Assembly (NCBI GenBank): GCA_034422455.1
Contig: DAOUJQ010000004.1
Span: 45,737 to 109,736 of the forward strand
From: Dehalococcoidia bacterium
GTDB lineage: Bacteria; Chloroflexota; Dehalococcoidia; Lucifugimonadales; UBA1127
Direction: 5' to 3'
Length of the DNA stretch: 64,000 nt
The first letter of the stretch is position 1; the number at the start of each line of letters is the position of its first letter. A model generated the notes under the pieces. The model had not been told where the DNA came from. It searched no databases and saw only the letters and a list, made by a program, of their open reading frames with translations. The position numbers and the translations under genes are program-made. This document shows positions 18,752-63,014 of this stretch, one piece after another.

Positions 18752-18774
18752 GCCCACACCCCTCGGACGCCAGA

Positions 18775-19207: not shown

Positions 19208-19220
19208 GCGCCCAACAACA

Positions 19221-20566: not shown

Positions 20567-20569
20567 GGC

Positions 20570-21937
20570 CTAGCCCCTCCCTGCTTGGGCCTGGGACCGT
20601 CGGCCAGGGCCCGTAGTGGTTGTGCGGCCGGGCACCGGCGTGAACATGTTGGTGAATCGGGCCAGCGGTGTTGCCGCCAGGAGGCGCAGCAGCGTTTGGC
20701 TGATGATTACGGCGGTGAACATGCTCGTCGCAACGCCGATGAAGAGCGTGACGGCAAAGCCGGTGACGGCGGACGCGCCGAACCGCGAGCCGAACCAGAA
20801 CAGGATGGCGCAGGTGATCATCGTAGCCACGTTGCTGTTGAGGATCGCCGGCCACGCGCGGCTGAACCCGGCGCCGATGGCCCCGAGCAGCGCGCGGCCC
20901 GTGCGCAGCTCTTCTTTTGTGCGTTCCGAGATGAGGATGTTGGCGTCCACAGCCACGCCGATGGACAGGATGAAGCCCGCTATTCCCGCCAGCGTCAGCG
21001 TCACGGGCACCAGCTTCACGATGAAGATGACCAGGATGATGTAGCAGATAAGCGCAAGGCTGGCCATGAGCCCCGGAAGGCGGTAGTAGAGCATCATGAA
21101 CAGCACCACCAGCCCGAACCCGATAAAGCCCGCCACGAGGCTCCTGTTCAGCGACTCTTCGCCCAGTGTTGCGTCCACGTTCTGCTCGGACACGACGGCG
21201 ATGGGCGTGTCCAGCCGGCCTTCCTCCAGCTGAATGGAGATGGTCCGCACCCGCTCGAAGGTGAAGTCCGGGCCCTCGATGAACGCCTGCCCGCCGAGAA
21301 TGGCCTGCCGTGCCACCGGCGCGACGATCTCCTCGTCGTCGAGGAAGATCGGCGTGCGGTCGTTGGTGCCGGCGATCCGCGACGTCACCTCCGCGAAGAT
21401 CCGCGCGCCTTCGGCGTTGAACTCCAGGTTGACGATCGGGTTGCCGGTTGTGGGGTGCGTTCCCGCGTACGCCCGGGCCAGCAGCTCGCCCGTCAGGCCC
21501 AGGTCAATGTCGGAATACTCTGTGCAGGCCGCGTTGTCGCAAACGCGCTCCTTGAACTCCAGCTGGCCCGTCTGGCCGATGAGCCGCTTGGCCTCCTCCA
21601 CGTCGTCCACGCCGGGGAGCTGGATGAGGACGCGGTTTTCGCCGAGGAGCTGGATCGTCGGCTCCGTCACGCCGAAGGCGTTGGTCCGCCGCTCGATCTT
21701 GTCCTGCACGCCCGCCATCTGAGACGGTGTGACGCCCTCCTCCACGGCCTCGTAGATGAGCTGCACGCCGCCCTGCAGGTCCAACCCCAGGGTCAGGCCC
21801 AGGGGGCCGTCGTCGTCGCCGCGGGCGAAGCTGAACCCAAAGATGTCGATGGAGTAGGTCTGGACGGCCAGTCCCCACACTGACAGCGCAACGAGGAGAG
21901 TGATGAGGACCAGCCTGCGAACGTCTCTACCGACCAT
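20570..21937 (-). CDS. secD: Protein translocase subunit SecD
   Basis: 455-aa ORF with LGLDLQGGVQL and ERRTNAFGVTEP motifs and a C-terminal 5-TM block. Confidence 0.93.
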   Translation of the reverse strand: MVGRDVRRLVLITLLVALSVWGLAVQTYSIDIFGFSFARGDDDGPLGLTLGLDLQGGVQLIYEAVEEGVTPSQMAGVQDKIERRTNAFGVTEPTIQLLGENRVLIQLPGVDDVEEAKRLIGQTGQLEFKERVCDNAACTEYSDIDLGLTGELLARAYAGTHPTTGNPIVNLEFNAEGARIFAEVTSRIAGTNDRTPIFLDDEEIVAPVARQAILGGQAFIEGPDFTFERVRTISIQLEEGRLDTPIAVVSEQNVDATLGEESLNRSLVAGFIGFGLVVLFMMLYYRLPGLMASLALICYIILVIFIVKLVPVTLTLAGIAGFILSIGVAVDANILISERTKEELRTGRALLGAIGAGFSRAWPAILNSNVATMITCAILFWFGSRFGASAVTGFAVTLFIGVATSMFTAVIISQTLLRLLAATPLARFTNMFTPVPGRTTTTGPGRRSQAQAGRG

Positions 21938-23441: not shown

Positions 23442-24000
23442 CTGACTCTGCACCGGCGTCCTCATCGTCTTCCGGCGCATCGTCGCTGCCCCGTGCGTAT
23501 TCGGCTGGCGGCCCGTCGGACAGCCTCCAGATTGCGTCTTTGGCGACAAGGTGCTCAACGTAAAGGTGGCCGTTCAGGTGGCCGATTTCGTGCTCCAGGG
23601 CCTGCGCCAGCAGGTTGTCCCTGGCGGTCAGCCGGTGCTTGCGGCCCTGCAGGTCCTGATAGCGCACCTTTACCCGGTTGGAGCGAAGCACCATGCCCTG
23701 ATAGCCGCTGACGCTGAGACAGCCCTCGTAGAGCCGGCGTTCGCCCTCCTGCGAGACGAGCTCCGGGTTGACGAAGACGCGCACGTCCTCTTCCTCCGGG
23801 ATCTCGATAACGCAGAGCATGAGCGGGACGCCTATCTGGTTGGCGGCAAGACCCACGCCGTTGGCTTGCCGCATTGCCTCGATCATCTCCTCCACCAGCG
23901 GCGGCAGAGAGGCATCGAAGCTGGTCACCTTGAGGGTCTTTCGGGTCAGCACCGGCTCCGGGAACTGGCAGATGGGTCGAACGTCCAAGTGGGCCCTCAC
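23434..24000 (-). CDS. def: Peptide deformylase
   Basis: Motifs GVGLAANQIG, EGCLSV and HEIGHLNG. GTG start at 24000. An alternative TTG at 23988 is preceded by GAGGG. Confidence 0.92.
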   Translation of the reverse strand: MRAHLDVRPICQFPEPVLTRKTLKVTSFDASLPPLVEEMIEAMRQANGVGLAANQIGVPLMLCVIEIPEEEDVRVFVNPELVSQEGERRLYEGCLSVSGYQGMVLRSNRVKVRYQDLQGRKHRLTARDNLLAQALEHEIGHLNGHLYVEHLVAKDAIWRLSDGPPAEYARGSDDAPEDDEDAGAESDE

Positions 24001-24027
24001 TCACAGTATGCTGCAAGCAACTAACCT

Positions 24028-24056
24028 ATTATAGGGACGCCCCTGGTTTCAGTAAA
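24028..24056 (-). promoter_or_regulatory. Putative sigma-70-type promoter of the def-cca-secDF operon
   Basis: On the minus strand, TTTACT - 17 nt - TATAAT, about 25 nt upstream of the def start. Confidence 0.45.
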
Positions 24057-24203
24057 GGAGCGCGGGGGCTTGCGACCACACGAGGGCGGCTACCCTCTCC
24101 CCTTCGGCACAGCCTTGACTTTGCCATAGGCTGCTGCAACACTGAGCCGTCGATTCAAGTATATGTCAGCTAGGCACCCCAGTCGCAGAGGTGACAGCGC
24201 TCG

Positions 24204-25193
24204 ATGCCCCCCTTGCTCGAAGTTCGTGACCTCCATACGCACTTCGTCACCCGCATGGGTACGGTGAAGGCCGTCAACGGCGTGAGCTTCACCCTTGAGG
24301 AGGGGCAGGTCCTGGGCCTCGTCGGCGAGAGCGGCTCCGGCAAGAGCACCCTGGCTCTCTCGCTGGTGCGCCTTGCGCCCTTCCCCGGGGAGGTCGTCGG
24401 CGGCGAGGTGTTGCTGAACGGCCGCGATCTCATGCAGATGTCGGAGTTGGAGCTGCAGGACATCCGCGGCAAGGAGATCGGCATTGTGCTGCAGGACGCC
24501 AGCGCCGCGTTGAACCCCACCCTGCGCATCGACAACCAGATGGTGGAGGCGCTGGAGGGTCACTTTCAACTGGGGCGCAAGCAGTCCGAACGTTTGGCGG
24601 TGGACCTGCTTCGTGACATGGGCCTGCCGGACGCGCCGGAGATGATGAAACGCTACCCGTACCAGGTCAGCGGCGGTCAGGCGCAGCGCATAATGCTGGC
24701 CATGGCGCTGGCCCTCAGCCCGAAGATCATCGTCGCCGACGAGCCCACGGCCAACCTCGACGTCACGATACAGGCCGAGATCCTCGCGCGGCTGCGGCGG
24801 CTGCAGCGGCAGAATGGCGCCGCCATCCTTTACATCACCCACGACTTGGGCGTCGTGAGCCGCGTGGCCGACGACGTGGCGGTCATATACGCCGGCTCGA
24901 TCATGGAGCAGGCGACGGCCCGCGATCTCTTCGACCGGCCGACGAACCCGTACACCCACGGCTTGCTGCAGAGCCTGCCGCGCATCGACGTCAAGCAGCA
25001 GGTGCTGACGTCCATTCCGGGCCAGCCGCCCGACATGATGGACCTGCCGGACGAGTGTCCCTTCCTGCCCCGGTGCCACAAGGCCCTCGCCACCTGCCGG
25101 GTGAACCCCAAGCCGGCGCTGGAGGAGATGTTCGAGCGGCACTACGTAGCCTGCTTCAACCCCATGGACCCGGAAGGGCTCCTGGGCCGGTAG
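24204..25193 (+). CDS. ABC transporter ATP-binding protein, oligopeptide/dipeptide (OppD/F) type
   Basis: 329-aa ORF. Walker A GESGSGKST, signature VSGGQAQR, Walker B IIVADEPTANLD, and a C-terminal CPFLPRC tail. Confidence 0.88.
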   Translation: MPPLLEVRDLHTHFVTRMGTVKAVNGVSFTLEEGQVLGLVGESGSGKSTLALSLVRLAPFPGEVVGGEVLLNGRDLMQMSELELQDIRGKEIGIVLQDASAALNPTLRIDNQMVEALEGHFQLGRKQSERLAVDLLRDMGLPDAPEMMKRYPYQVSGGQAQRIMLAMALALSPKIIVADEPTANLDVTIQAEILARLRRLQRQNGAAILYITHDLGVVSRVADDVAVIYAGSIMEQATARDLFDRPTNPYTHGLLQSLPRIDVKQQVLTSIPGQPPDMMDLPDECPFLPRCHKALATCRVNPKPALEEMFERHYVACFNPMDPEGLLGR

Positions 25194-25207
25194 TCCAGTA
25201 AAAGGAA

Positions 25208-25237
25208 ACGGGGCCCCTGAGGGCCCCGTCTTCATTT
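25208..25237. terminator. Bidirectional intrinsic terminator between convergent ABC ATPase and hsp20 genes
   Basis: 9-bp stem ACGGGGCCC / GGGCCCCGT with loop CTGA. It is flanked by an A-rich run (AAAAGGAAA) on the left and a T-rich run (CTTCATTTC) on the right. Confidence 0.6.
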
Positions 25238-25256
25238 CGGGACTGCCCGATTCGGC

Positions 25257-25682
25257 TTAGCTGCCGTTGGAGCCGACCGTGAGCTTACGGGCCTTGCGCT
25301 CCTCCGCCTTGGGCAGGGTGACGGTCAGGACGCCGTGCTCGTAGTGGGTGGCCGCCTCGTCGGCGTTCACGAACTCCGGCAGCCGGATGGAGCGACGGAA
25401 TGAGCCCGCGCGGCGCTCACGGATGACAAAGCGCTCGTCCGTGGTCTCCTCCGCGGACTCCGTCTTGCCGTCGATGGTCAGGACGTTGTCCTCGATGGTG
25501 ACGTCCAGGTCCTCAGGCTTGATGCCCGGGACCGACGCCGTGACCGTCACGCCGTCCTCGCGCTCCACCACGTCGAGGGGGAGCGTCCAGCGGTCCGCCC
25601 CGGCCAGCGACCGGAAGCCGCGATTCCTGTGCCCGTGGAACCTCCGCAACTCTCGGAACGGGTCGTAGTGCAACATGTACAT
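25257..25682 (-). CDS. Small heat-shock protein (Hsp20/alpha-crystallin family)
   Basis: Start ATG 25682 is preceded by AAGGAGG. The alpha-crystallin domain runs LDVVEREDGVTVTASVPGIKPEDLDVTIEDNVLTI...GVLTVTLPK. Confidence 0.9.
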   Translation of the reverse strand: MYMLHYDPFRELRRFHGHRNRGFRSLAGADRWTLPLDVVEREDGVTVTASVPGIKPEDLDVTIEDNVLTIDGKTESAEETTDERFVIRERRAGSFRRSIRLPEFVNADEAATHYEHGVLTVTLPKAEERKARKLTVGSNGS

Positions 25683-25777
25683 GCCGTGCCTCCTTGTGCC
25701 TGCGCTCTTGCGCACTGTCTTGCTGACGCCGGACAACCGGATAGGAAACAGCTTTGTCCGGCGTTGGCTCAAGGCAT

Positions 25778-25864
25778 AGCTTACCATCGACTCTACACTT
25801 AGTCAAGAACTTTCTTTAATCTTTATTCAATAAACTTGACACAATCTGTATCATAGTTCATGCT
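25778..25864. promoter_or_regulatory. AT-rich divergent promoter region for hsp20 (minus) and dnaJ-hspR-clpB (plus)
   Basis: Minus strand: TTGACT (25806-25801) - 17 nt - TAAGCT (25783-25778). Plus strand: TTGACA (25836-25841) - 17 nt - CATGCT (25859-25864). This is the only strongly AT-rich stretch in this part of the window. Confidence 0.45.
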
Positions 25865-25883
25865 GATGATATAAGAGGAACAC

Positions 25884-26882
25884 ATGGCAGCTGACTACTA
25901 CAACGTGCTGGGCATCGACCGGAACGCGGGTGAGAAGGAGGTCCGCGCGGCCTACCGCAGGTTGGCGCGCAAGTACCACCCGGACGTTAACCACGGCGAG
26001 CCGGACGCCACGGAGCGCTTCAAGGAGATCAACGAAGCGCACGAGGTCCTCTCAAACCCGGAGTCGCGTCGGCTCTACGACCGCTACGGAGAGAACTGGC
26101 GCAACGTCCAGCGTGGCGGAGACCCGTTCCAGGGCGGCTCCCCCTTCCGGGGCGGCGGCCGCTGGCAGACCCAGACCATCGACCCCGAGACCTTCCATGA
26201 CCTCTTCGGAGGCGGCGGCTTCGGGGGCATGTTCGACTCCTTCTTCGGCGGTGGCCGAGGAGGAAGCGGCGGACGACGGAGGGGCCCGCAGCGCCCCGGC
26301 GTGCTGGAGCAGCCCGTCGAGCTGACGCTGGAGGAGGCGTTCCACGGCACGACGCGTGCCCTGCAGGTCACCGGGCAGACGCCGTGCGCAACCTGCAACG
26401 GCGTCGGCACGGTCAACAACCGCGCATGCCAGACCTGCCTGGGCCAGGGCTTTTCCTTCCAGCCTGTCCGCGGTGAAGTCTCGATTCCGGCGGGCGTCGA
26501 CAACGGTTCCCGCGTGCGGGTGTCCCCCGGGGGACAGCAAGTGGTCCTCGTTGTCACGGTGCTGCCGCACGCACGCTTCCAGCGCAATGGCAACGACCTG
26601 TCCACAGAGGTCACGGTGCCCCTCTACGACGCCGTCCTGGGGGCCGAGGTCGTAGTGCCGACCATGACCGGTCAGGTCGCGCTGAAGCTGCCCCCGGAGT
26701 CCCAGAACGGCCGTGTGTTTCGCTTGGGCCGGCAGGGTATGCCGAAGCTGGGCACGCCCGCGGAGCGCGGCAACCTTTTCGTCACCGTAAGGGTGGAACT
26801 GCCAACGGAGCTGTCCGACGACGAGCGTCGGCTCTTTACGCAACTCAAGGACCTCCGAACAGCGAATGGAGGCAGTCAATGA
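25884..26882 (+). CDS. dnaJ: DnaJ-family co-chaperone (J domain, G/F region, reduced zinc-finger, C-terminal domains)
   Basis: J domain DYYNVLGI...YHPD. Gly/Phe-rich linker. Only two CxxCxG motifs (CATCNG, CQTCLG) where there are usually four. Confidence 0.88.
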   Translation: MAADYYNVLGIDRNAGEKEVRAAYRRLARKYHPDVNHGEPDATERFKEINEAHEVLSNPESRRLYDRYGENWRNVQRGGDPFQGGSPFRGGGRWQTQTIDPETFHDLFGGGGFGGMFDSFFGGGRGGSGGRRRGPQRPGVLEQPVELTLEEAFHGTTRALQVTGQTPCATCNGVGTVNNRACQTCLGQGFSFQPVRGEVSIPAGVDNGSRVRVSPGGQQVVLVVTVLPHARFQRNGNDLSTEVTVPLYDAVLGAEVVVPTMTGQVALKLPPESQNGRVFRLGRQGMPKLGTPAERGNLFVTVRVELPTELSDDERRLFTQLKDLRTANGGSQ

Positions 26883-27253
26883 CGACAAGAGAACAGCCCG
26901 GCTGGGACGAGCCCTGCTTCGTCATCAGCGTCGTGTCTCGCATGGTGGGCGTCAACGCGCAGACCCTCCGCTACTTTGAGCGCATCGAGCTCGTCGAGCC
27001 GTCCCGCTCCGGCGGCAACATCAGGCTCTACTCGCCGCGGGACATCGAGCGGCTGCGGCGCATCAAGACGCTGGTGTACGACATGGGCGTCAACGCGGCG
27101 GGTGCGGAGGTCATCCTTCGGTTGACGGACAGGATCCAACAACTCGAAGGGCAGGTGGAGTTGCTGCGAAACGAACTCGACCGCCTGCAGGAGGAGGAGG
27201 CGGTCGAGGAAGTGGAAGCGGAGATTGTGGACGGCGTCGTGGAAGAGCGTTAG
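26879..27253 (+). CDS. hspR: MerR-family heat-shock regulator (HspR-like)
   Basis: 124-aa [31 protein letters not shown] followed by a coiled-coil tail. The ATG overlaps the dnaJ stop (ATGA). Confidence 0.8.
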
Positions 27254-27309
27254 CGCTTGGTGGGCCGCCCTTCTGGGAGCAGACTCCCCATCGTTCAGGA
27301 GGTGTCAAC

Positions 27310-29781
27310 ATGGTGATGAGACCGGAAGACTTCACCGAATCCGCGAGGGAGGCCATCTCCCGCTCGCAGGACCTGGTGCGGCACTACCGCCACGGCCAGT
27401 GGGACGTGGAGCACGTGCTCCTCGCTCTGCTGGAGCAGCAGGACGGAGTGCCCTCCCAGACCCTGCGGGAGATGGACGCAGACCCCGCGGTCCTCCGTTC
27501 CGACGTAGAAGCGGCCCTTGAGCGCGCACCCAAGCTCCAGTATGAGCCGAATCAGATCTTCGCCACGCCACGGGTGCAGCGCGTGCTCGAGGACGCCAAG
27601 ACCGAGGCGGAGCGCCTGAAGGACGAGTTCATCGGCACGGAGCACATCTTCATCGCCATCAGCGAAGAGCGCACCGGCGACTCCGCAGAGCTACTACGCG
27701 CCCGGCAAATTGATACGGAGAAGATCTATCAGTCCCTGAGCAAAGTTCGGGGAGCGCAGCGCGTCACGGACTCCCGCGCCGACAGCCGGTACCGCTCTTT
27801 GGAGAAGTTTAGCCGCGACCTGACGCAGCTCGCCCGCCAGGGACGGCTGGACCCCGTCGTCGCGCGGGACGGCGTCGTGCAGCAGTCCATCCAGACGCTG
27901 TCGCGCCGTACGAAGAACAACCCCGTCCTGCTGGGCGAGGCCGGCGTCGGCAAGACCGCCGTCGTCGAGGGGTTGGCGCAGGCCATCGTCGCCGGCGGCG
28001 TGCCCGACGCCATCAGGGACAAGCGCGTGCTGTGGCTCGACATGCCGGGGCTCGTGGCCGGCTCCAAGTTCCGCGGCGAGTTCGAGGAGCGGCTCAAGGC
28101 CGTCATGAACGAGGTCATGGCCGCTAAGGGTGAGGTCATCCTGTTCATCGACGAGATTCACACAGTCGTCGGCGCGGGCGGCGCAGAGGGCGCCATCGAC
28201 GCCTCCAACATGATGAAGCCGGCCCTCGCCCGCGGCGAGCTGCAGGTCATTGGCGCAACAACGCCCGACGAGTACCGTAGGTACATCGAGAAGGACTCGG
28301 CGTTGGAGCGCCGCTTTCACCCTGTGTGGGTCGAAGAGCCATCGGAGGAGGACGCCGTCCTGATGGTGATGGCCCTGCGTCCGCGCTATGAGACCCACCA
28401 CGGCGTCACCATCGACGACAGCGCCGTGAACGCCGCCGTGCGCCTTAGCAAGCGGTACGTCACCGACCGCCGCCTGCCGGACAAGGCCGTCGACCTCATC
28501 GACGAGGCCGCCGCCAAGCTCCGGCTCCAGGTGTCCAGCATGCCGGACGAGATCAAAGAGCTGCAGCGTCGAGCAGCCGAGTTGGAGGACCAGGAGGAGG
28601 CCGCCGCTCAGCGCGCCGACTACCAGCGCGCATCGGAGTTGCGGGCTGAGCGGATTCAGGTGGAGCACCAGGTCGCCACCCAGCGCGACGCATGGCTCGC
28701 AAACGAAAAGTTGGACATGGTCGTCAGTGAAGACGACATCGCCGCCCTGATTGCCGTGTGGACCGGCGTGCCGGTGAGCCGCCTGCTCCAGTCGGAGGCG
28801 AAGCGGCTCCTCCACATGGAGGACGCCCTGCACGCCCGCGTCATCGGTCAGGACGAGGCGGTCTCCGTCGTGTCGGAGGCAATCCGGCGGGCGCGGGCCG
28901 GCCTGAAGGACCTCAAGCGGCCCATCGGCGCCTTCATGTTCCTGGGCCCTACGGGCGTGGGCAAGACGGAGTTGGCGCGCGCCCTGGCGCAGTTCCTCTT
29001 CGACGACGAGGAAGCGCTCATACGCATCGACATGTCCGAGTACATGGAGCACCACACCATCTCCCGGCTGGTGGGCGCGCCGCCCGGCTACATTGGCTAC
29101 GACGAGGGTGGCCAGCTCACGGAGTTGGTGCGCCGCCGCCCGTTCCGCGTCGTGCTCTTCGACGAGATCGAGAAGGCGCACCCACAGGTGTTCAACCTGC
29201 TGCTGCAACTCCTCGAGGACGGCCGCCTGACAGACGGCCACGGCAACGCGGTCGATTTCCGCAACACCGTCATCATCATGACCAGCAACCTCGGAACCAG
29301 CGACTTCGGCCGCAACACGACCCTCGGCTTCCGCCGTGAAGACGCGGGCTTCGCGGCCCAGCGTGACCGCATCCGCTCGACGGTGGAGGATGCGCTGAAG
29401 CGCACATTCCGGCCGGAGTTCCTGAACCGCCTGGACGAGACGGTCACGTTCGACCCGCTTACCCGCGATGACCTCCACCGCATCGTCGATCTGATGGCGA
29501 ACGCGGTGCAGGAACGAATGGGCGAGCAGGAGATCACACTGGTCGTCTCAGAGGAGGCCAAGGACTGGCTGGTGAAAGAGGGCTACGACCCCGTGTTCGG
29601 CGCGCGCCCGCTGCGGAGAGCCGTGCAGCGCCACGTCGAGAACCCGCTGGCAAGCCGCATCCTGTCCGCCGAGTTCTCCCACGGCGACAAGGTCCACGTC
29701 GACGTGGACCCCAATGGCGGAGCGCTCACGTTTGCTGTGTCAGCTGCGCCCGCCACGCCTGCTGAGGCGGTCGCGGGGTAA
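27310..29781 (+). CDS. clpB: Class I AAA+ Clp/Hsp100 chaperone (ClpB-like N-terminus, short ClpC-like middle region)
   Basis: 823-aa ORF with two Walker A sites ([18 protein letters not shown]). The N-domain is ClpB-like ([12 protein letters not shown]). The middle region is short and has a UVR-like motif ([16 protein letters not shown]). Confidence 0.85.
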
Positions 29782-29809
29782 CGGATCCTACAGCCATTGA
29801 CTGAATCGA

Positions 29810-29852
29810 GCCAGGGCGGGGAGGGGCCGCAAGCCCCTCCCCGCCCTGGCTT
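29810..29852 (+). terminator. Strong hairpin downstream of clpB
   Basis: Perfect 18-bp stem GCCAGGGCGGGGAGGGGC / GCCCCTCCCCGCCCTGGC with loop CGCAA, followed by TT. Confidence 0.6.
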
Positions 29853-29942
29853 GCCCCAAGCGCCGTCCCACGGGTATGCTTGCCCCTGCCGAATCGCGCG
29901 CGAAGCGGCTGGGCCATGCCGGCGAGTGAGTGGGGTGCAGTC

Positions 29943-30893
29943 ATGCCAGACCTGCCGACCCAGGAAGAAGTCCTAGCCTACTTCACCTCCCTGAGCAACT
30001 GGGGCCGCTGGGGCGACGATGACCAGCTCGGCGCTATGAACCACATCACGCCGGAGACCCGCCTGGGTGCCCTGTCCCTCGTGCGGGAGGGCGTCACGGT
30101 GTCCTGCTCGCGGACGCTGAGCAACGCGCCGGGGCCGGACGTGGTGGCGCAGCCCGTGCACTACATGATCGAGTCCGGTGAGGGGTATGCCCACGACGAG
30201 AAGGCCGGCCCGCCCCGGCCCGCGCAGACGTCGTCGGACTTCATCGGCGTCGCCTTCCACGGCCACACCGTCACCCACGTCGACAGCCTCGCCCACTTCT
30301 TCTTCGACGGGAAGATGTACAACGGCAAGCCCGCGAGCCTTGTGTCGACGCGCTACGGCGCCACGTGGGAGTCCATCGAGGTGCTGCAGGGCGGCATCCT
30401 AGCGCGGGGCGTGCTGCTTGACATCCCCCGCCTGCGCGGCATCCCGTGGTTCAACCCTGGCGAGGGCATCCTTCGCGAGGACCTGGAGGCGGCGGAGGAA
30501 GCCCAGGGCGTGCGCGTTGGACCCGGCGACGTCCTGCTGGTGCGCACGGGTCAGCTCCGCCGCCGCGCGGAGCTCGGTCCCTGGAACATCGCCAGCGAGG
30601 GCGGCACCGGCACCCACGCCAACTGCCTCCCCTTCTTCCACGAGCGCTCCATCGCCATGCTGGGCTCCGATACCGGCAACAGCCTGCAGCACCCGGGGTT
30701 CGACCGGCTCGCCAACCCGACGCACCAGGTCGGCATCGTCGCCATGGGCCTGTGGATCCTGGACAACGCCGACCTCGAGGCGCTGGCGGAGGCGTGCGCC
30801 GAGCGTGGCCGCTGGGAGTTTCTCATCACCATTAACCCCCTCCGCATCGAGGGCGGGACGGGCTCACCCGCGAATCCGGTCGCGGTGTTCTAG
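29943..30893 (+). CDS. Cyclase-family protein (kynurenine-formamidase-like fold)
   Basis: Start ATG 29943 (MPDLPTQEEV...). Typical LSNWGRWGDDDQLGAMN N-terminus and HVDSLAHFF metal motif. Confidence 0.75.
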   Translation: MPDLPTQEEVLAYFTSLSNWGRWGDDDQLGAMNHITPETRLGALSLVREGVTVSCSRTLSNAPGPDVVAQPVHYMIESGEGYAHDEKAGPPRPAQTSSDFIGVAFHGHTVTHVDSLAHFFFDGKMYNGKPASLVSTRYGATWESIEVLQGGILARGVLLDIPRLRGIPWFNPGEGILREDLEAAEEAQGVRVGPGDVLLVRTGQLRRRAELGPWNIASEGGTGTHANCLPFFHERSIAMLGSDTGNSLQHPGFDRLANPTHQVGIVAMGLWILDNADLEALAEACAERGRWEFLITINPLRIEGGTGSPANPVAVF

Positions 30894-44106: not shown

Positions 44107-44792
44107 GCGACCCCCGGCGCGTGCAGCGCATGTTCGACGGGATTGCGCGGCGGTACGACGCCTTCAACACCGTGGCGTCGCTGGGGCGCGATGAGTCGTG
44201 GCGGCGGCTGACGGCCAGCATCGCGGCGCCGGAGCCGGTGGAGCGCGGGCTCGACGCGGCGGCGGGCACCGGCAAGCTCTCGGCGGCGCTGGCGGCGAGG
44301 GCGTCGCGGGTGACGGCGCTCGACTTCTCGGCGCCGATGCTGGCGCGCGGCGGGCCGGAGCTGGCCGGGCGCGGGCTGCTGCAGCGCATCGAGCGGGTGC
44401 AGGGCGACGTCCTCGCCATGCCCTTCGCGGACGGGGCGTTTGACTGCGCGACGATCGGGTTCGGGCTGCGGAACCTGGCCGACATCCCCCTCGGGCTGCG
44501 GGAGTTCCGGCGGGTGCTGCGGCCCGGCGGGCGGCTGGCGGTCCTCGACATCGTGCGGCCGCGGGGGGCGCTCGGCCGGGCGGCCTACGGCATCGGGTTC
44601 CGGCGGCTGATGCCCCTCGTCGGGTGGGCGCTGTCGGGCGACCGGGGCGCGTACCGGTACCTGCCGGAGTCCGTCGAGCGGTACCTGGACCCGGACGCGC
44701 TGGCCTCAGCGATGGCGGAGGCGGGGTTCACCGGCGTCGGCTACCGGCGGCTGATGCTGGGGACGATCGCCGTCCACTGGGGCGTGGCGTAA
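44103..44792 (+). CDS. UbiE/MenG-family SAM-dependent methyltransferase
   Basis: GTG 44103 overlaps the epimerase stop (GTGA). VQRMFDGIARRYD N-terminus, LDAAAGTGK SAM motif and FGLRN motif. The last codons lie inside the first unit of the 54-bp tandem repeat. Confidence 0.82.
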   Translation: MSDPRRVQRMFDGIARRYDAFNTVASLGRDESWRRLTASIAAPEPVERGLDAAAGTGKLSAALAARASRVTALDFSAPMLARGGPELAGRGLLQRIERVQGDVLAMPFADGAFDCATIGFGLRNLADIPLGLREFRRVLRPGGRLAVLDIVRPRGALGRAAYGIGFRRLMPLVGWALSGDRGAYRYLPESVERYLDPDALASAMAEAGFTGVGYRRLMLGTIAVHWGVA

Positions 44793-44958
44793 CAGGAGGG
44801 CCCTTCGACGGGCTCAGGGCGAACGGGCTCTTGGGGCGTGGCGTAACAGGGGGGCCCTTCGACGGGCTCAGGGCGAACGGGCTCTTGGGGCGTGGCGTAA
44901 CAGGGGGCGCCCTTCGACGGGCTCAGGGCGAACGGGGTCTTGGGGCGTGGCGTAACAG
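44779..44958 (+). repeat. Tandem repeat, 54-55 bp x 3 plus a partial fourth unit
   Basis: Units start at 44779, 44833, 44887 and 44942, with consensus GGGGCGTGGCGTAACAGGGGGGCCCTTCGACGGGCTCAGGGCGAACGGGCTCTT. Each unit contains a RepB element in reverse orientation. Confidence 0.9.
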
Positions 44959-44968
44959 TCCGACTGTT

Positions 44969-45084
44969 GGGAATTGTTTCGTCGCTTTTCGTAGCTGGGC
45001 GGAGATTCGTGCGGTCTTCGATTTGGAGGGGAATTGGCGCGTTTCCGCTGCGAAACGAATTTTTCATCTACGGGAAACAATTCC
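44969..45084 (-). repeat. RepH-beta hairpin element with terminal inverted repeats (MITE-like)
   Basis: GGGAATTGTTTC at 44969-44980 and GAAACAATTCC at 45074-45084 are inverted repeats. The internal conserved block is GGGGAATTGGCGCGTTTC. It is homologous to 19337-19452. Confidence 0.65.
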
Positions 45085-45215
45085 TGTCGTGCGCGGGGGC
45101 GAGTCCCGGTTTTGGGGTTTCGGGGAACGATTTTGTTGTTGGTGGTGTCGTGTGCCATGGGGGGAGGGTAGCGGCGGGGGAGGGTGGGGGGCAAGGGGGT
45201 GGTGGCAGGGGGGAA

Positions 45216-45390
45216 CCCCCATCCTAACCTTCCCCCATAAAGGGGGAAGGGACTCCCCGCCCGGCCCCCGCCCGTTCATCCTTCGATTTCCCTCAGGACG
45301 AACGGGCTCTTGGGGCGTCGAGCGTGGTCCGTCGCGGGGGCGGGGGTCCCGCCTGGCGGCGGGACGGGCGACCACGAGGGTCGCCCCTAC
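45216..45390. repeat. Cluster of GC-rich palindromic repeats (RepA, RepB variant, RepD, all reverse orientation)
   Basis: RepA 45216-45250 (CCCCCATCCTAACCTTCCCCCATAAAGGGGGAAGG). RepB variant 45271-45306 (CCTTCGATTTCCCTCAGGACGAACGGG, also present at 50994-51031). RepD 45366-45390 (GGGCGACCACGAGGGTCGCCCCTAC). Confidence 0.8.
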
Positions 45391-46559: not shown

Positions 46560-46644
46560 GGGGACAGTGTACCGCAGGGGGCGGGCCCTTCGACAGGCTT
46601 CCTTCGACAGGCTCAGGACGAACGGGTGCGCGCCCTCCGACACG

Positions 46645-46705: not shown

Positions 46706-49700
46706 TTACGGGATGATCACCCCGTCCACCGTGGAGTAGAGCCAGTAGCCCTTGCCCACGGTCACAGCCTTCTTGAGGGTGACCGAGTCTCCGTCATTAA
46801 AGACGGCGTCCTTAGGATCGGACTTGTCGATGAAGGCAAGGGCTTGGCACGGCTCGGCGTTGCCCTCAACCTTGTCGTTGGCACTCTTGTCAGCATCCGT
46901 GCCTACTGCCCTGCCCGTGCAGGGGTTCGTGCCACCATGGTTGACTACCTCAGTCGCGCCCGGCGTCACGGATATCCACGTGCGATTCAGGGTGTTAAAG
47001 GTCAGCGCCTTCAACCACCCTGAGCCGCTGCCGGACTTCAGTGTGCCGAAGTAGTCATCCGCCGCAATGCCTGCAGGCGTTGGAATATCGTTGCTGACGA
47101 TCGGCACCAAGTTCCAGCCCTTCACCACCGTGATGGCAGGCGGGGGCGGCGGCGCCGCGGCTGCGGTGGCCAGTGCGGGCCGCAGCAGCGCCAACGGTAG
47201 GAATTTCTCTGTCTGGATGAAGTAGGCCGTGTTGGCCGTCAGCACTGTGATGTCCCCCGTGAACAGGCCGGTCTCAGCGTCGCGACGCGAAACCATCCAG
47301 ACCTGGCTGAGGTTGTCGTACGTCATCACGATGCGCGCCGGGTGGTTGGCCGGGATCACGCTGTTGATGGCCGGGTTGGCCGGCTGGAAGGGCAGGGAGA
47401 TGAGGTTCCAGCCAGGGGACAGAGGGATGTTCACCGGCTTGGGAGCCACGACCTTCCACTTGGACGTCAGGCTCTGAGCCGTGCCGGACCCGTCCTTGCG
47501 GTTGTTCCCCGCTTCGTCCATGGCTTTCACCGTCAATTCGTAGCTGCCCACCTTGGGGTTCAGTAGCGGAATAGTGAACTGGATGTTATCCGGGCTGCTG
47601 ACGTCCGTGGTCAGATCGAGGGCGTTAGTTGTGGATGTCCCGTCGGCGAAGCTCACCTTCAGACTGGCAGAAGTCAGCGTGACCGTCCGGTAACTGTCTC
47701 GCGTGTACTCCCCCGTCTCGTCCTTGAAGTCCACAGTGACAATCATGGGGTCTACAGATTCAACCTCAGGCTGGGTTGCCGAGCCGTACACCGCCTTCTT
47801 GTCAGACACGGAGACCACAGGGTCATCACCGCCGTTGAGCTGGTCGTCCAACTCAAAAGTGAAGGAACTGGCCGTGTTGGCTGCGCTGGAGTTGCCGGCG
47901 GCGCCCTTGTTGTTTTGGTTCTGGGTGTCACTGCCTTCGGCGTAGACGTTGTACTCGCCTCTGCCGAGGTTCCCAACGTCGGCCGTGTAGCTGTAGGACA
48001 ATGCCGTCACCGGGCTGGCTGACACATTGGGTTCAGTGTCCCGCTCAGCCGCGCCCGCGTTGGTCGTCACCTTGGTCACCCACAGTTGGGGCGCCGCGCC
48101 CAGTTGCTCGTCGCTGCTGATGGTGATCTTTACCTTTTCATTGCTGAGGGCCTTGTCCTTGTCCAGGCTCAGGTTGGGTCCCAGACGGTCGACGGCCCTG
48201 ATCGTGTCGCCGCCGTAGGCGTTGCCCGCCCGGTCCCTGATGACGCCGCTGGCAATGGTAATAGCCGGCTTCGCGCTAGATCCCAGGTCCGTCCCCAGGG
48301 TCAAGAAAACCAGGAAGCTGTTGGCTGCCTTGGTTTCTGTGGCGGCCAGGCTCTTGCCCGCGGTGTCGACTACCAGCACCGATTCCACCGTGTTGCCCGA
48401 TACCTGGAAGGCCGAGGCGGTGACGGTGGCCGTGTCCAGACCGCCCGCGTCAATGAAGGTGATCTGGATGGAGTCCTTCTTGGCTTTGGTCCCCGTCAGG
48501 TGCTTGGCTGGGGAGCCGCCCCAAGCGTGGCCCGTCACGGCGTTGGGCGTCCCTAGGGCGGGCGGCGTCCCGTCCACGGTGATGAGGCGCGTGTTCAAGA
48601 TCTCGAAAGACGCGCCTTTGGGGATCGCGATCGCCACCTTCTTGGTGAACGTATACGCGCGTGGGGTGTCGTTGCCGGCGGTGCCACCGTGGTTGCCGGT
48701 AGCGGGATCGTTGTCCAAGTCGCCCGAAATCATGCCAAGTAACGACAGATCGGCCATGAAGGCGTCCCCAGCAGCCAACGTGAACGTTCCATCGCTATTG
48801 GAGAAGTCGTCAATCGCCTTGGTATGGGTGACGGTCCCCACGGACCACTTGGCACCCGTGTTGGGCGTGAATGTGACGTTGGTAGTGGCCGTTCCGTCGG
48901 TGTCGGTGGCAGAGTCGTGGTTAACGTCTGCGGGGGCATCATAAATGCCACCGGTCGTCGTCACATCCGCAGAGGTGGCCGTAGTGGTAATCTTGATCCG
49001 ACGGCCGTTAAAGACATCGTCTTGGTACCCCGCGTTGGCGAAGTCTTCGGAGACCACTGTCGTGCCGGCCGCGAGGCCAGCAGTACTGGCCTTGCCGGTG
49101 ATGCTGCCGGCGCTCTCCTTGACGTTGCCCGCCAAGTCCTCCGCCACAAAGTACCACGGCACCTTCTGGCCCAAGCCCTCAACGTCCGAGGATGACAGGG
49201 ACTTGGTGACCCTCCACCCATCGGTGATGGACGAAAGGTTGCTTTCCGCCAGGCTCACGGGCGTCTGGCCAAGGTAGAGTTCAATGCGTCCCTTGGCGCT
49301 GCTGACAGCGGTCTGCCGCTCTTGGTTGTTGCTGGCCAACACATCCGCGGCCTTGCTCTTGAACCCGGCGTTACTGTCCGTCACATTCGCACTGAAGGCG
49401 ATATTGACGGCCCGCTTCACTACCAGGTCCGCATCCGGCGAGTTCACCAGCACGGAGGGGTCCTGGTTGTCCACCGTCAGGATCCGGGAGATGCCCAATT
49501 GCCCTGACTGCTTTAGCGTCACCTGGATCCGGTTCCCGTGGAAGGCCTTCACTTCAATGACGTGGGCGGTGTTGTCCGCGCTATCGTCAGGGCTGCCTAC
49601 CTGATTGCGGCCCGTGCGAACGTCCCGATCGTCCTTCAGACCGGAGCTCTTGTGGACTGCCCGCACGGAGACTGCCGAGGCAAAGGCTGAAGCAAGATAG

Positions 49701-50065
49701 ACCTTGGGGTTGGCGTCAGAGCCGTCGATGTCAGTGGGGTCAGCAGTTTCGACTGCAGCGCCAGCACTAGTAATCTTGTCCCTGACGCTCTCTGAGTCCA
49801 GGTTGCGGATTTCCACCGTCGCATCCGAGTCAGTGGAAGAGGCAAGGATCGTAAACATGGCGTCCGTTGCCGTGCAGCCTCGAGAGCAAACGCTGGTGGA
49901 GGAAACGGCGGCAGCTTCACCTGTTACTGCTGCCAGGTTTGAGCTCGCGGTGAGCGTCAATGTGCCGCTCGTCTGCGCCTGCACGCTGCCCTGCGTGTTG
50001 AGGCCCATGACCACGAGCAGGGCCAGGACCGCGAGGATTGAACCGAACTTCCAAAACTGTCTCAT
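46706..50065 (-). CDS. Large secreted cell-surface protein (S-layer-like), 1119 aa
   Basis: Start ATG 50065 is preceded by AAGGAG. Signal peptide MRQFWKFGSILAVLALLVVMGLN. The body is Thr/Ser/Ala/Asp/Val-rich and looks beta-rich. The C-terminal module is duplicated (PGWNLISLPF...AYFIQ and KGWNLVPIV...GYWLY). GC is lower than in the surroundings. Confidence 0.85.
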   Translation of the reverse strand: MRQFWKFGSILAVLALLVVMGLNTQGSVQAQTSGTLTLTASSNLAAVTGEAAAVSSTSVCSRGCTATDAMFTILASSTDSDATVEIRNLDSESVRDKITSAGAAVETADPTDIDGSDANPKVYLASAFASAVSVRAVHKSSGLKDDRDVRTGRNQVGSPDDSADNTAHVIEVKAFHGNRIQVTLKQSGQLGISRILTVDNQDPSVLVNSPDADLVVKRAVNIAFSANVTDSNAGFKSKAADVLASNNQERQTAVSSAKGRIELYLGQTPVSLAESNLSSITDGWRVTKSLSSSDVEGLGQKVPWYFVAEDLAGNVKESAGSITGKASTAGLAAGTTVVSEDFANAGYQDDVFNGRRIKITTTATSADVTTTGGIYDAPADVNHDSATDTDGTATTNVTFTPNTGAKWSVGTVTHTKAIDDFSNSDGTFTLAAGDAFMADLSLLGMISGDLDNDPATGNHGGTAGNDTPRAYTFTKKVAIAIPKGASFEILNTRLITVDGTPPALGTPNAVTGHAWGGSPAKHLTGTKAKKDSIQITFIDAGGLDTATVTASAFQVSGNTVESVLVVDTAGKSLAATETKAANSFLVFLTLGTDLGSSAKPAITIASGVIRDRAGNAYGGDTIRAVDRLGPNLSLDKDKALSNEKVKITISSDEQLGAAPQLWVTKVTTNAGAAERDTEPNVSASPVTALSYSYTADVGNLGRGEYNVYAEGSDTQNQNNKGAAGNSSAANTASSFTFELDDQLNGGDDPVVSVSDKKAVYGSATQPEVESVDPMIVTVDFKDETGEYTRDSYRTVTLTSASLKVSFADGTSTTNALDLTTDVSSPDNIQFTIPLLNPKVGSYELTVKAMDEAGNNRKDGSGTAQSLTSKWKVVAPKPVNIPLSPGWNLISLPFQPANPAINSVIPANHPARIVMTYDNLSQVWMVSRRDAETGLFTGDITVLTANTAYFIQTEKFLPLALLRPALATAAAAPPPPPAITVVKGWNLVPIVSNDIPTPAGIAADDYFGTLKSGSGSGWLKALTFNTLNRTWISVTPGATEVVNHGGTNPCTGRAVGTDADKSANDKVEGNAEPCQALAFIDKSDPKDAVFNDGDSVTLKKAVTVGKGYWLYSTVDGVIIP

Positions 50066-50200: not shown

Positions 50201-50457
50201 CAACACAAGCATACAACGAGGCAGGGCGCGGGGAAGTTCCATGCGTGGGGGGGCCTTTTCCGTCGTTCCCGCGCAGGCGGGAACCCAGAGGGGCGGGGCC
50301 GGGTGGGGGGATCCCTGCCACCAGCCCCTCGCGCGGGCGCGGTCGATGGCGCTACCCTCGCGGCATGCATCGCCGACACGAGAGCACAGCGCCGACGCGA
50401 CCGCTCACCCTGAGCCTGTCGAAGGGTCCTGCGCAGGCGGGAACCCAGAGGGGCGGC

Positions 50458-50541
50458 CGGATTCGCTTCCCCCTCGGTAAAATTCGTGTTGTATCTGCAA
50501 CGTGCCAAACCAGCTTCAACACGAATCGCAACACGAATCCC
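50458..50541 (+). repeat. RepH-alpha hairpin element, copy 1
   Basis: Outer inverted repeat GGATTCG...CGAATCC and inner stem TTCGTGTTG...CAACACGAA. The 41-nt core at 50484-50524 is identical to copies 2 and 3. Confidence 0.85.
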
Positions 50542-50637
50542 CGCAGCCCCTCCGATCACCCTGAGCCTGTCGAAGGGCCCCGCGCAGGCAGAGCCTGTCC
50601 CCGCGCAGGCGGGGAAACCCAGAGGGGCGGGGGTGGG

Positions 50638-50729
50638 CGGGGGAATTGTTCCCCCCTGATGAAAAATTTTTCGTGTTGTATCTGCAACGTGCCAAACCAG
50701 CTTCAACACGAAAAACAAAACAATTCCCC
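50638..50729 (+). repeat. RepH-alpha hairpin element, copy 2
   Basis: Outer inverted repeat GGGGGAATTGTT...AACAATTCCCCC. Its sequence differs from copies 1 and 3 but it is still self-complementary. Identical 41-nt core at 50671-50711. Confidence 0.85.
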
Positions 50730-50798
50730 CGCAGCTACGCCCCGCCCCCTTCCGTCGTTCCTGCGCAGGCAGGAACCCAGAGGGGAGAGGGCGCGGGG

Positions 50799-50886
50799 CG
50801 GGGGATTCGCTTCCCCCCCGGTGAATATCCGTGTTGTATCTGCAACGTGCCAAACCAGCTTCAACACGAATCGCAAGACGAATCCC
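50799..50886 (+). repeat. RepH-alpha hairpin element, copy 3
   Basis: Outer inverted repeat GGGGGATTCG...CGAATCCCC. Identical 41-nt core at 50829-50869. Confidence 0.85.
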
Positions 50887-51046
50887 CGGCGGGCCCTTCG
50901 ACAAGCTCAGGGCGAACGGAGGGAGGGGAGCGCAGCCGCCCGTTCGTCCTGAGCCCGTCGAAGGATGGCCGGGCGGCGGCGGGGGCGGGGCGCACCCCGT
51001 TCGTCCTGAGGGAAATCGAAGGATGGACGGGGTGCGGGGGCGGGGG

Positions 51047-51304: not shown

Positions 51305-52000
51305 TTACAGCCCGTAGCCGGCGCCGTCGTAGAGGCAGTGGGCCACCCAGCGGACCTCGCCCCAGACCTCGTCATCGCCGGTGTGCTCCATGCGGGCGCC
51401 GAGGGGGTGGTCGCTGCACCAGTACCAGCCGCCGGCGGGGTACTGGCGGGCGCGGCGGACGTGGATGTCGCCGGCGTGCTCGAAGACGTAGAGGCGGTTC
51501 TCGACGGGGACGGCGCGGGAGCAATCGACGAGGATGGTGCTGCCGTGGGGGAGCGTCGGCATCATGGCGTCGCCGACGACGTGGAAGACCCGGGAGTGCT
51601 TGGGGTCGACACCGAGGGTGTCGAGGAGCTCGCGGCGGCGGAAGGGGTAGCTGCCCTCGGCGGGGAAGACGGTCGAGTCGCCGGAGAGGCCGGCGAGGGC
51701 GGGCTGGGCGCAGGTCTCGACGAAGGCGACGTCGACGGCGTCGTACGCGGCGGCCGGGTGCGGGTTGTCCGTCAGCTCCAGGAGGTAGTCGAGGGAGGTG
51801 TTGAGGTACATGGCCATCTGGATGAGCTTCTCCAGGGAGGGTTGCGCGCGGCCGGAGAGGATTTTGGAGACGGTGGGCTGCGCCGAGTCCAGGCTGTAGC
51901 CGATGTGGTCGCCAAGACTCTGCTGCGTGACGCCTTGGCGCGCCATCGCGGCGATCAGTCGCTCTCTGCTAAGTGCGGGCTGTCTGTCCTTGCGTCCCAT
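51305..52000 (-). CDS. CI/LexA-like repressor: XRE-type HTH plus S24 peptidase-like domain with substituted catalytic residues
   Basis: HTH VTQQSLGDHIGYSLDSAQPTVSKILSG. The S24 domain reads VVGDAMMPTL, where GDSM is expected, and IHVRRAR, where a Lys is expected. Start chosen at ATG 52000 (GGGAGGA upstream, promoter at 52029-52057). The ORF remains open up to 52072. Confidence 0.8.
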   Translation of the reverse strand: MGRKDRQPALSRERLIAAMARQGVTQQSLGDHIGYSLDSAQPTVSKILSGRAQPSLEKLIQMAMYLNTSLDYLLELTDNPHPAAAYDAVDVAFVETCAQPALAGLSGDSTVFPAEGSYPFRRRELLDTLGVDPKHSRVFHVVGDAMMPTLPHGSTILVDCSRAVPVENRLYVFEHAGDIHVRRARQYPAGGWYWCSDHPLGARMEHTGDDEVWGEVRWVAHCLYDGAGYGL

Positions 52001-52028
52001 CCACGTGCTCCATTCCTCCCTCGCGCCC

Positions 52029-52102
52029 ATTATTGCTAGCAACAACTCTCTTGACAAATGTATGTCATGCATCTACCTTACGGGCATGAACATGCATGAC
52101 AT
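52029..52102. promoter_or_regulatory. Back-to-back divergent promoters and inverted-repeat operator of the CI/Cro-like pair
   Basis: Plus strand: TTGACA (52051-52056) - 17 nt - TACCTT (52074-52079), which puts the transcription start at about the ATG 52086 (leaderless). Minus strand: TTGTCA (52057-52052) - 17 nt - AATAAT (52034-52029). A perfect 11-bp inverted repeat, ATGTCATGCAT (52062-52072) / ATGCATGACAT (52092-52102), brackets the plus-strand -10 and start codon. Confidence 0.6.
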
Positions 52103-52331
52103 GCATCTTCAAAAGCGAGTGGCCCGGTCCGGCGTGACCCAGGAACGGCTCGCGCTGACGCTGGGGATCGACCCCACGCAGTTTAGCCGGTATATCCGCG
52201 GGCTGCGCCGCGCGCCCGAGGGCTTCGAGGAGCAGGTCAGCGCGATGCTCGACCGGCTGGAGGCCGCGGAGCAGGCGGCGGAGCAGGCCGCGCAAGAGGC
52301 GCGAGAGCGCATCCTGGCGAACGAGGAGTGA
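52086..52331 (+). CDS. Cro-like small HTH protein (81 aa)
   Basis: MNMHDMHLQKRVARSGVTQERLALTLGIDPTQFSRYIRG is an HTH, followed by an acidic helical tail. Divergent from the CI-like gene. Confidence 0.7.
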   Translation: MNMHDMHLQKRVARSGVTQERLALTLGIDPTQFSRYIRGLRRAPEGFEEQVSAMLDRLEAAEQAAEQAAQEARERILANEE

Positions 52332-57955: not shown

Positions 57956-57988
57956 GGCGCGTGGCGGGGTGAGCGGCCCCTCCCCACG

Positions 57989-58094
57989 CCGCCCCTCTAG
58001 GTTCCCCTGCCTTCGCAGGGGCAGGCTCTGCCTCCGCAGGAACGACGGAAGAGGGGGATCAGGGCGACCCTTCGACAGGGCTCAGGGCGAACGG
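57989..58094. repeat. RepC (double) and RepB copies in reverse orientation between convergent genes
   Basis: 57989-58048 (CCGCCCCTCTAGGTTCCCCTGCCTTCGCAGGGGCAGGCTCTGCCTCCGCAGGAACGACGG) resembles the reverse complement of 50577-50632. 58063-58094 (GGGCGACCCTTCGACAGGGCTCAGGGCGAACGG) is a RepB copy. Confidence 0.75.
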
Positions 58095-62705: not shown

Positions 62706-62795
62706 GGCGCATTCGATTCGGCATTCGCTTTGTAGCTGTTGTGGCACATTTCAGCTACAAAGCGAATTTCACCCGGGGGAAGACAAATCCCGGCC
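62706..62795 (-). repeat. RepH-alpha hairpin element, isolated copy with a perfect 16-bp stem
   Basis: ATTCGCTTTGTAGCTG (62723-62738) pairs with CAGCTACAAAGCGAAT (62752-62767) around a 13-nt loop. The reverse complement aligns along its whole length with 50451-50545. Confidence 0.8.
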
Positions 62796-63014
62796 GTCAC
62801 TTGCGGCACCGCAACCAGTTTTGATGAGCGCCACGCGGCCGCGGGCTGGGCGACAGCGGCGTAGAGGAAGCCGCACTTCTCTTGCTCGATCCCCTTCATT
62901 TTCCCTCTCATGCAGAGAGGGTATCCGGGGGGCTAGCGGGGGCACTACGGGGTGATGGCAGGGGGATCCGGTCAAGCCAAGCGAACGTGGAATGCTAGGC
63001 ACCCGGCCTTCAAT

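Follow-up and report, generated by a model that had tools for sequence, protein, structure and literature searches.

Much is known about small dispersed repeats in cultured Proteobacteria and Firmicutes. REPs are short (20-40 nt), G+C-rich, imperfect palindromes that carry a 5' GTAG and are tied to a RAYT transposase, and the CREE of Neisseria duplicate a TA target. In integrons, attC sites are made of 5' RYYYAAC ... GTTRRRY 3' core sites around an imperfect hairpin beside a cassette ORF, and small RNA genes also occur in tandem, as for Chloroflexi-1 (Rfam) and NsiR1 of cyanobacteria. General background on BIME/BOX-type repeats is available (PMC3184786), and one account of CREE reports mobilisation between close genomes (PMC2649163). 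For uncultured Chloroflexota, our literature search found nothing on small dispersed repeats.

The DNA studied here is a 64-kb stretch of 64,000 nucleotides from a Dehalococcoidia bacterium, hereafter the window, in which an initial annotation had described a dispersed hairpin element, RepH. RepH is confirmed as a genuine repeat family and, on balance, we lean towards its being a mosaic dispersed repeat, restricted to one clade, whose own promoter gives rise to a hairpin RNA. That it is transcribed, and what it does, we infer from the sequence, the promoter being recognised at the level of motifs.

Results

Copies of RepH in the window

The window holds six copies of RepH (A to F) at four loci, about one locus per 16 kb, and these are the six that the initial annotation had placed, at the same coordinates and with the sequences that it had quoted. 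An nhmmer profile trained on just A, B and C retrieved D (E 1.3e-12), F (6.8e-7) and E (3e-4) from the 64 kb, and beyond the six copies there was no site at E <0.005. Moreover, a 49-nt profile made only from copies outside the window lineage ranked the same six at the top, and a degenerate pattern of the core gave 6 matches in the window against 0 expected. Plain BLAST joined A, B and C mutually, and also E with F; it did not join D to A-C. The end-to-end alignment proposed between the reverse complement of 62706-62795 and 50451-50545 was recovered, with 65 of 95 columns identical (shuffles: mean 31, maximum 44). As for E and F, which had been taken for beta-type relatives of about 115 nt, their places were right but not their extent, since the homology spans ~270 nt.

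All six copies were also correctly described as intergenic, as judged by third-position GC and family matches. Unit E is flanked by ADH and SecF genes, unit F by a UbiE-type methyltransferase gene and a DUF362/Npun_F2552 gene, the A-B-C array by a 1119-aa orphan gene and an 85-aa ORF, and unit D by a TIGR03086 protein gene and a methyltransferase gene. The G+C content of the window is 66.6%, and that of the 49-nt RepH core 41-59%, mostly 41-51%. The features of the six copies are as follows.

19221-19452, + strand: unit E (beta type)
19221-19230, + strand: box CCCTGCCACC of unit E
19237-19242 and 19261-19266, + strand: promoter-like -35 TTGCCC and -10 TACCAT of unit E
19273, + strand: ATG and putative transcription start of unit E
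19337-19348, + strand: left inverted repeat GGGAATTGTTCC of unit E
19362-19410, + strand: hairpin core of unit E
19426-19433, + strand: short repeat CCAGCTAC of unit E
19444-19451, + strand: right repeat GAAACAAT of unit E, degenerate
44969-45210, - strand: unit F (beta type)
45201-45210, - strand: box of unit F, with -35 TTGCCC at 45189-45194 and -10 TACCCT at 45165-45170
45156-45158, - strand: ATG of unit F
45073-45085, - strand: left inverted repeat AGGAATTGTTTCC of unit F
45014-45062, - strand: hairpin core of unit F
44991-44998, - strand: short repeat CCAGCTAC of unit F
44969-44980, - strand: right repeat GAAACAATTCCC of unit F
50313-50367, + strand: head of the A-B-C array, box and promoter-like module
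50313-50322, + strand: box CCCTGCCACC of the array head, with -10 TACCCT at 50353-50358 and ATG at 50365-50367
50459-50542, + strand: copy A (alpha type)
50459-50466 and 50534-50542, + strand: outer repeat GGATTCGC / CGAATCCCC of copy A
50480-50528, + strand: hairpin core of copy A
50639-50738, + strand: copy B
50639-50650 and 50719-50730, + strand: perfect 12-bp outer repeat GGGGGAATTGTT / AACAATTCCCCC of copy B
50667-50715, + strand: hairpin core of copy B, with short repeat GCAGCTAC at 50731-50738
50803-50887, + strand: copy C (alpha type)
50803-50810 and 50879-50887, + strand: outer repeat GGATTCGC / CGAATCCCC of copy C
50825-50873, + strand: hairpin core of copy C
62706-62963, - strand: unit D, which includes the copy first flagged
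62954-62963, - strand: box CCCTGCCATC of unit D
62918-62923, - strand: -10 TACCCT of unit D, with a degenerate -35 and ATG at 62909-62911
62784-62791, - strand: left repeat GGGATTTG of unit D
62752-62767 and 62723-62738, - strand: perfect 16-bp stem of unit D
62742-62747, - strand: GTGCCA in the loop of unit D, with a second CGAAT block at 62711-62720

Covariation of the stem

The perfect 16-bp stem reported for unit D is present at 62723-62738 / 62752-62767. In A and B the stem reads ATTCGTGTTG/CAACACGAAT, C carries ATCCGTGTTG and with it one C-A mismatch, and in all three copies two mismatches break the helix in the apical stem. In copy A, the right arm CAACACGAA is duplicated (50517-50525 and 50529-50537). 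The double compensation TG to CT / CA to AG between A-C and D is correct as first described.

Covariation was assessed on the 26 distinct sequences among 28 hairpins gathered from the window and related metagenome contigs, in a gap-free, loop-anchored alignment of the 16-bp helix. Paired cells made up 79.1% of the stem, against 29-37% when the partners were slid by 1-3 columns and 70.3% in shuffles, and the covariation score was 0.258 against 0.132 for shuffles; none of 500 shuffles reached either value, although these statistics overstate independence because many copies are related by descent, an effect from which the slid controls are free. Double-sided changes were found at 10 of the 16 stem pairs. 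The basal helix exists in at least six different versions, each still complementary, and the parts conserved in sequence are the stem apex GTAGCTG/CAGCTAC and the loop AAYGYGNCA. The stem has been lost in some copies (L053). Covariation thus goes far beyond both the shuffled and the slid controls, which bears out the selection for a fold that had been proposed. Wobble pairs (18 G-T/T-G cells against 26 C-A/A-C cells) do not favour the promoter strand or the other, so the covariation fits a DNA hairpin as well as an RNA fold. RNAalifold returned no consensus structure for the full-unit alignment, which is too gappy.

A larger unit with a promoter-like module

RepH hairpins form the core of a more extensive unit of 230-600 nt, a point that the initial annotation had missed. 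All four loci of the window open with a CCCTGCCAYC box and then a sigma-70-like promoter motif, both located 89-164 nt upstream of the first hairpin and on the same strand. The box occurs four times in the window (0.67 expected), one occurrence heading each RepH locus, and TACCNT-N6-ATG six times (0.36 expected), four of them upstream of RepH loci, D included. In order, the module comprises TTGCCC, 18 nt, gcTACCCT, 6 nt and ATG; its hexamers are conserved and its 18-nt spacer is variable. The -35 is poor in D, in A-C and in the L052 units. A same-strand module was found for 22 of the 28 hairpins, 89-166 nt upstream or further within arrays, and those without one either sit inside an array or lie at the end of a contig. 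It keeps a fixed side, strand and distance even in divergent copies. In the A-B-C array, the module at 50313-50367 is the only one upstream of the hairpins, a single promoter-like module thus preceding a tandem array of three.

The tRNA genes of the window have canonical promoters (TTGAnn, 17-18 nt, TAnAnT). A gcTACCnT -10 with a TTGnCn -35 also precedes MMPL, ABC ATPase, Rieske oxygenase and L052 hrcA genes, which indicates that this promoter type is in ordinary use in the lineage. The RepH unit looks like it carries its own promoter.

The next 60-150 nt after the promoter motif are rich in C/A and poor in G, and can be invaded by other REP-like repeats. Then come the left inverted repeat (GG(G)AATTGTTYC, or GGATTCG in alpha-type copies), an A/T-rich bulge, a stem of ~16 bp with a 13-nt loop, zero to three GCAGCTAC short repeats and the right inverted repeat. 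An alignment of 15 divergent units revealed additional conserved blocks, namely ATGGAA at the start, TTGT in the left repeat, the hairpin itself and a nearly invariant GCAGC ~25 nt past the hairpin. On the element strand no terminator-like sites were found, and between 50200 and 51100 there were none on either strand; inside unit E, two such sites occur on the opposite strand only.

RepH units appear to be non-coding. Indeed, ORFs starting from the module ATG range from 34 to >110 codons in differing frames, L007 and L008 differ by 14 substitutions, of which 8, 3 and 3 are at codon positions 1, 2 and 3, and the ATG is not invariant, being replaced by AAG in a copy from L056 and by ATA in a copy from L052. 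A small leaderless protein was ruled out on the basis of frame, length and codon-position pattern. Public ORF calls of 82 aa and 261 aa lie over three tandem RepH units in L054 (18609-18857 and 18957-19742) and are probably spurious. Since gene callers put spurious ORFs over units in this way, a covariance model of the unit would clear MAG annotations of them.

Distribution and turnover among relatives

Positions 16454-30566 of the window are identical to an ENA metagenome scaffold (L002), and contig L001 represents a strain ~95% identical to the window. Judged by SecF, which is 87-89% identical, the nearest genomes are without exception MAGs of uncultured Dehalococcoidia/Chloroflexota. Exact look-ups of three window proteins gave no record, and the strain comparisons therefore relied on homologs of the 1119-aa protein. 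Related loci, ~1 Mb of DNA in all, were gathered through homologs of SecF and of the 1119-aa protein, and profile and covariance-model searches identified further copies in L001, L004, L006-L008, L051-L056 and metagenome contig L050. Dehalococcoidia at a greater evolutionary distance, represented by 40 loci, yielded none. A strict core pattern had no match in a genome collection of 185,579 species or in the JGI metagenomes; a relaxed hairpin pattern yielded one real metagenome contig (L050) and one chance match (L049), and had no match in viral contigs. In the DNA sampled, RepH is confined to a single clade of uncultured Dehalococcoidia (Chloroflexota).

Within this clade, unit content shifts rapidly between ~95%-identical strains and between species. 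Where the window has the three hairpins of the A-B-C array, strain L051 has only two; the difference, 152 bp, comprises B and an adjoining repeat, with junctions in G-rich direct repeats, and other neighbouring repeat modules differ as well. L001 has an additional promoter-plus-hairpin unit, G, in a rearranged mosaic segment. Six sister genomes have a SecF-ADH spacer of ~100 bp, whereas that of the window is 876 bp long and that of L001, where unit E has an ortholog, 1072 bp. Conversely, L004 has a unit (L4) in a spacer that is closed in the window; E and L4 thus sit in spacers that are empty in the other lineage. Of the 49 core positions in the L051 ortholog of F, 42 agree with E but only 32 with F, a pattern suggestive of conversion from one copy to another. 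In five genomes (the window, L051, L053, L054 and L056), the same large gene has a divergently oriented unit upstream.

Neighbouring repeats and genes

Both the strain alignment and a self-BLAST of the window place RepH among repeats of at least three further families, with which it is interleaved. The second family, CACCCTGAGCCTGTCGAAGGG (reverse complement CCCTTCGACAGGCTCAGGG), often forms inverted pairs, and over 28-31 nt it shares 97-100% identity with intergenic sites of Sphingobium/Novosphingobium plasmids, which makes it a short repeat common to different phyla. The third, CCTGCGCAGGCRGGAACCCAGAGGGG, consists of a small palindrome with a G-rich tail behind it. Along the A-B-C array its copies alternate with those of RepH, and the window and L051 do not have the same number of them.

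50401-50425, 50560-50582, 50894-50928, 50938-50964, 19058-19092: second repeat family
44802-44938, 45292-45318, 46600-46626, 58060-58094: second repeat family, continued
18984-19044, 50261-50321, 50427-50460, 50597-50646, 50750-50806, 57959-58040: third repeat family

At 44778-44958, a 73-bp segment composed of GGGGCGTGGCGTAACAG and a CCCTTCGAC...GAACGG repeat recurs with a spacing of ~108 bp, two aligned copies being 96% identical; it begins in the last codons of the UbiE-type methyltransferase gene. The hairpin repeat CCCTTCCCCCTCGGGGGGAAGGTTAGGATGGGG forms a long tandem array adjoining a RepH unit in L052 (6960-7520) and is present as single copies beside F in the window (~45225-45260).

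Among the genes, the 1119-aa ORF (46706-50065, - strand) is matched by neither Pfam nor NCBIfam; identity between the window and L051 is only 61% for this ORF, as against 91-95% for the DNA on either side, and its homologs occur only in related MAGs (34-61% identity), so that it looks like a fast-evolving orphan protein. At 51305-52331, and especially at 52040-52100, a repressor gene of the XRE/S24 type (LexA- or cI-like) lies opposite a divergent arrangement of TTGACA, 17 nt, TACCTT, 6 nt and ATG, which looks like a leaderless start. Repeated CATGCAT palindromes occur in this region, and tRNA-Leu and tRNA-Glu genes are close by; it may be the switch region of an integrated element. Three paralogous gene segments (685-1485, 2315-2806 and 16184-17010) share 72-74% DNA identity, and at least the one at 16-17 kb belongs to a Rieske-type oxygenase gene. 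In L051-L054, genes for GIY-YIG nucleases (95-150 aa) lie within ~1 kb of RepH units; the one by the L051 ortholog of F is missing from the window, where ~580 bp are absent.

L051, 14100-14429: GIY-YIG gene
L052, 9046-9333: GIY-YIG gene
L053, 8214-8666: GIY-YIG gene
L054, 8774-9088: GIY-YIG gene

Discussion

RepH does not correspond to a known RNA family, as the initial annotation had suspected: Rfam scans at gathering scores gave only five tRNAs in the window, and at E-values up to 5-10 nothing credible over the A-C, E, D and L054 units. A BLAST search of RepH against plasmids and phages matched only the unrelated neighbouring 28-31-nt repeat. Several other identities were considered and discarded. 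An integron attC site does not fit, as the RepH repeats have GTT at 5' and AAC at 3', which is the reverse order, and the arrays contain no cassette ORFs; for a retron RNA or a CRISPR, the layout is wrong, no reverse transcriptase is nearby and the unit length is unfit; and a sigma-54 promoter in the loop (TGGCAC) would have the wrong spacing to the TTGC block, as seen by inspection.

In the reading towards which we lean, the unit's own promoter would produce an RNA in which selection acts on the hairpin, and a single promoter could serve a tandem array of hairpins, as in A-B-C. Units would multiply and decay via duplication, unequal crossing-over and conversion inside repeat-rich spacers. Such duplication and recombination behaviour points to a mosaic repeat of the kind of BIME, BOX or Correia elements and not to a cut-and-paste MITE.

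A classic MITE, a class that the initial annotation had offered as one possibility, is rather unlikely. A transposase encoded at another place would recognise its ends (GGGAATTGTT / AACAATTCCC) in trans, the hairpin would be a by-product of the palindrome, and the upstream promoter module would be a separate neighbouring repeat. Elements that are small, non-coding, dispersed and intergenic, and whose presence varies among strains and species, are what this reading predicts, and terminal inverted repeats of 10-14 bp, perfect or near-perfect, do exceed shuffles in B, F, F2 and L054a. An outer inverted repeat co-varying between copies had been reported initially; its presence, beyond what shuffles give, stands only for B, F and a few relatives, it is degenerate in D and E, and instead of free covariation there are two sequence types. 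Overall, the terminal repeats are weak, degenerate or missing in D, E, L4, L52, L6a/b and L50c. Against a MITE, inspection of B, F, F2, L50d, L54a and L6c revealed no shared direct repeat flanking them that could be a target-site duplication, and the indels between strains are not bounded by terminal repeats: they take in neighbouring repeats and end in G-rich direct repeats. Within the window and the nine closest loci that were listed, part of the ~1 Mb of related DNA covered, GGGAATTGTT with up to one mismatch was confined to RepH copies, and no partner was seen. A promoter module fixed in side, strand and distance across divergent copies also speaks against this reading.

Two candidate partners were examined and rejected. 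The DDE transposase of L055 adjoins a RepH copy, but its far flank has no repeat, and the same RepH copy is found in L052 without the transposase. The small GIY-YIG genes are near some units, yet they follow local synteny and none is in the window.

RepH might instead be a family of regulatory small RNA genes beneficial to the host, for instance a protein-sequestering or base-pairing RNA, in which the loop AAYGYGNCA and the repeated GCAGCUAC would be functional sites and the spread of units a gene-family expansion. We consider this doubtful. It would account for non-coding units with their own promoter (at motif level), a covarying stem and a conserved asymmetric loop, for the near-invariant GCAGC block after the hairpin in 15 divergent units, and for the presence of a unit upstream of the same large gene in five genomes. 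Nevertheless, a density of ~1 locus per 16 kb with gain and loss at ~95% identity is unusual for regulators under purifying selection, units are absent from the orthologous spacers of sister species, the stem is lost in some copies such as those of L053, and no terminator was found.

More speculatively, and with a low probability in our view, the units could be self-contained, copy-number-dynamic structured-RNA genes that work with a protein encoded elsewhere, and so a new class of mobile non-coding RNA gene in an uncultured lineage of phylum level. They might then be the orphan guide or bridge-type RNA of a recombinase or nuclease, or a multi-hairpin decoy titrating an RNA-binding protein, the conserved loop and the repeated GCAGCUAC serving as recognition sites.

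It is quite improbable that RepH acts at the DNA level or as a 3'-end element, that is, as a cruciform or protein-binding site, or as a REP-like hairpin that stabilises or terminates the converging transcripts of neighbours. Each of the four window units is directed at the 3' end of a gene that converges on it, the SecF stop codon, opposite unit E, has two terminator-like hairpins with T runs behind it, T runs follow the stem on the opposite strand of A, B and F, and wobble counts that favour neither strand would suit a DNA-level element. However, the stems are A/T-rich despite the 66.6% G+C of the window, most lack a T tract, and at A-C there is no terminator on either strand. On the element strand, no G+C-rich stem is followed by a T run, which gives no support to the terminator family that had been suggested. 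In relatives, units are also co-directional with and upstream of genes, as for rex (L052, L055) and a Rieske gene (L004), and the conserved promoter module would be left unexplained.

Finally, a mobile outward promoter on the opposite strand, with the reversed loop TTGGCA as -35 and the A/T-rich bulge 18 nt off as -10, is very improbable, since the matches that suggest it, TTGGCA, 18 nt, GATATT/AAAAAT inside B (50666-50695, - strand) and C (50824-50853, - strand; 0.0 expected in shuffles) and TTGGCA, 18 nt, AATATT in unit G, are set against the paralogy of B and C, which makes their two matches not independent, poor -10 hexamers in A, D, E and F, loops reading GTGTCG or GTGACG in relatives and a spacing that fails in L052.

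The mosaic, promoter-bearing repeat that we favour can be compared with several known systems. Like RepH, MITEs are small and intergenic, with presence/absence polymorphism and terminal inverted repeats (in RepH, in some copies); unlike them, RepH has a promoter and box outside the repeats and, in the loci covered, no target-site duplications, matching partner or repeat-bounded indels. REPs are G+C-rich palindromes of 20-40 nt, whereas RepH is A/T-rich, at least 49 nt long, and has an asymmetric conserved loop and its own promoter motif; moreover, its GTAG lies inside the stem (GTAGCTG) and not at its foot. REPs and BIMEs are associated with RAYT; among the Pfam-annotated genes called in L001, L002 and L051-L056, no RAYT (Y1 transposase) was seen. 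RepH resembles the tandem small RNA genes in its head-to-tail hairpin units, intergenic location, Chloroflexota genome and apparent transcription. It differs from Chloroflexi-1 and NsiR1 by the lack of an Rfam match (E up to 10), by one promoter for several hairpins and by the absence of terminators.

The BIMEs of enterobacteria and the BOX elements of pneumococci are, like RepH, modular mosaics of short repeats, intergenic, variable in copy number and arranged in tandem clusters. CREE share with RepH a small size, a dispersed, non-coding nature, terminal inverted repeats and a conserved core; they are also promoter-associated and form a hairpin when transcribed, transcription being for RepH what its promoter motif suggests. 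There is no sequence similarity between the two, the CREE target duplication has no counterpart seen in RepH, and CREE promoters are at the element ends, whereas the RepH promoter motif lies 89-166 nt upstream, outside the inverted repeats. If it is transcribed, RepH would provide an abundant, fast-evolving structured RNA as well as transcription converging on neighbouring genes. RepH is unusual in combining a covarying hairpin with a conserved promoter motif placed outside its inverted repeats, in arraying hairpins behind one promoter, and in the exchange of whole modules among ~95%-identical strains.
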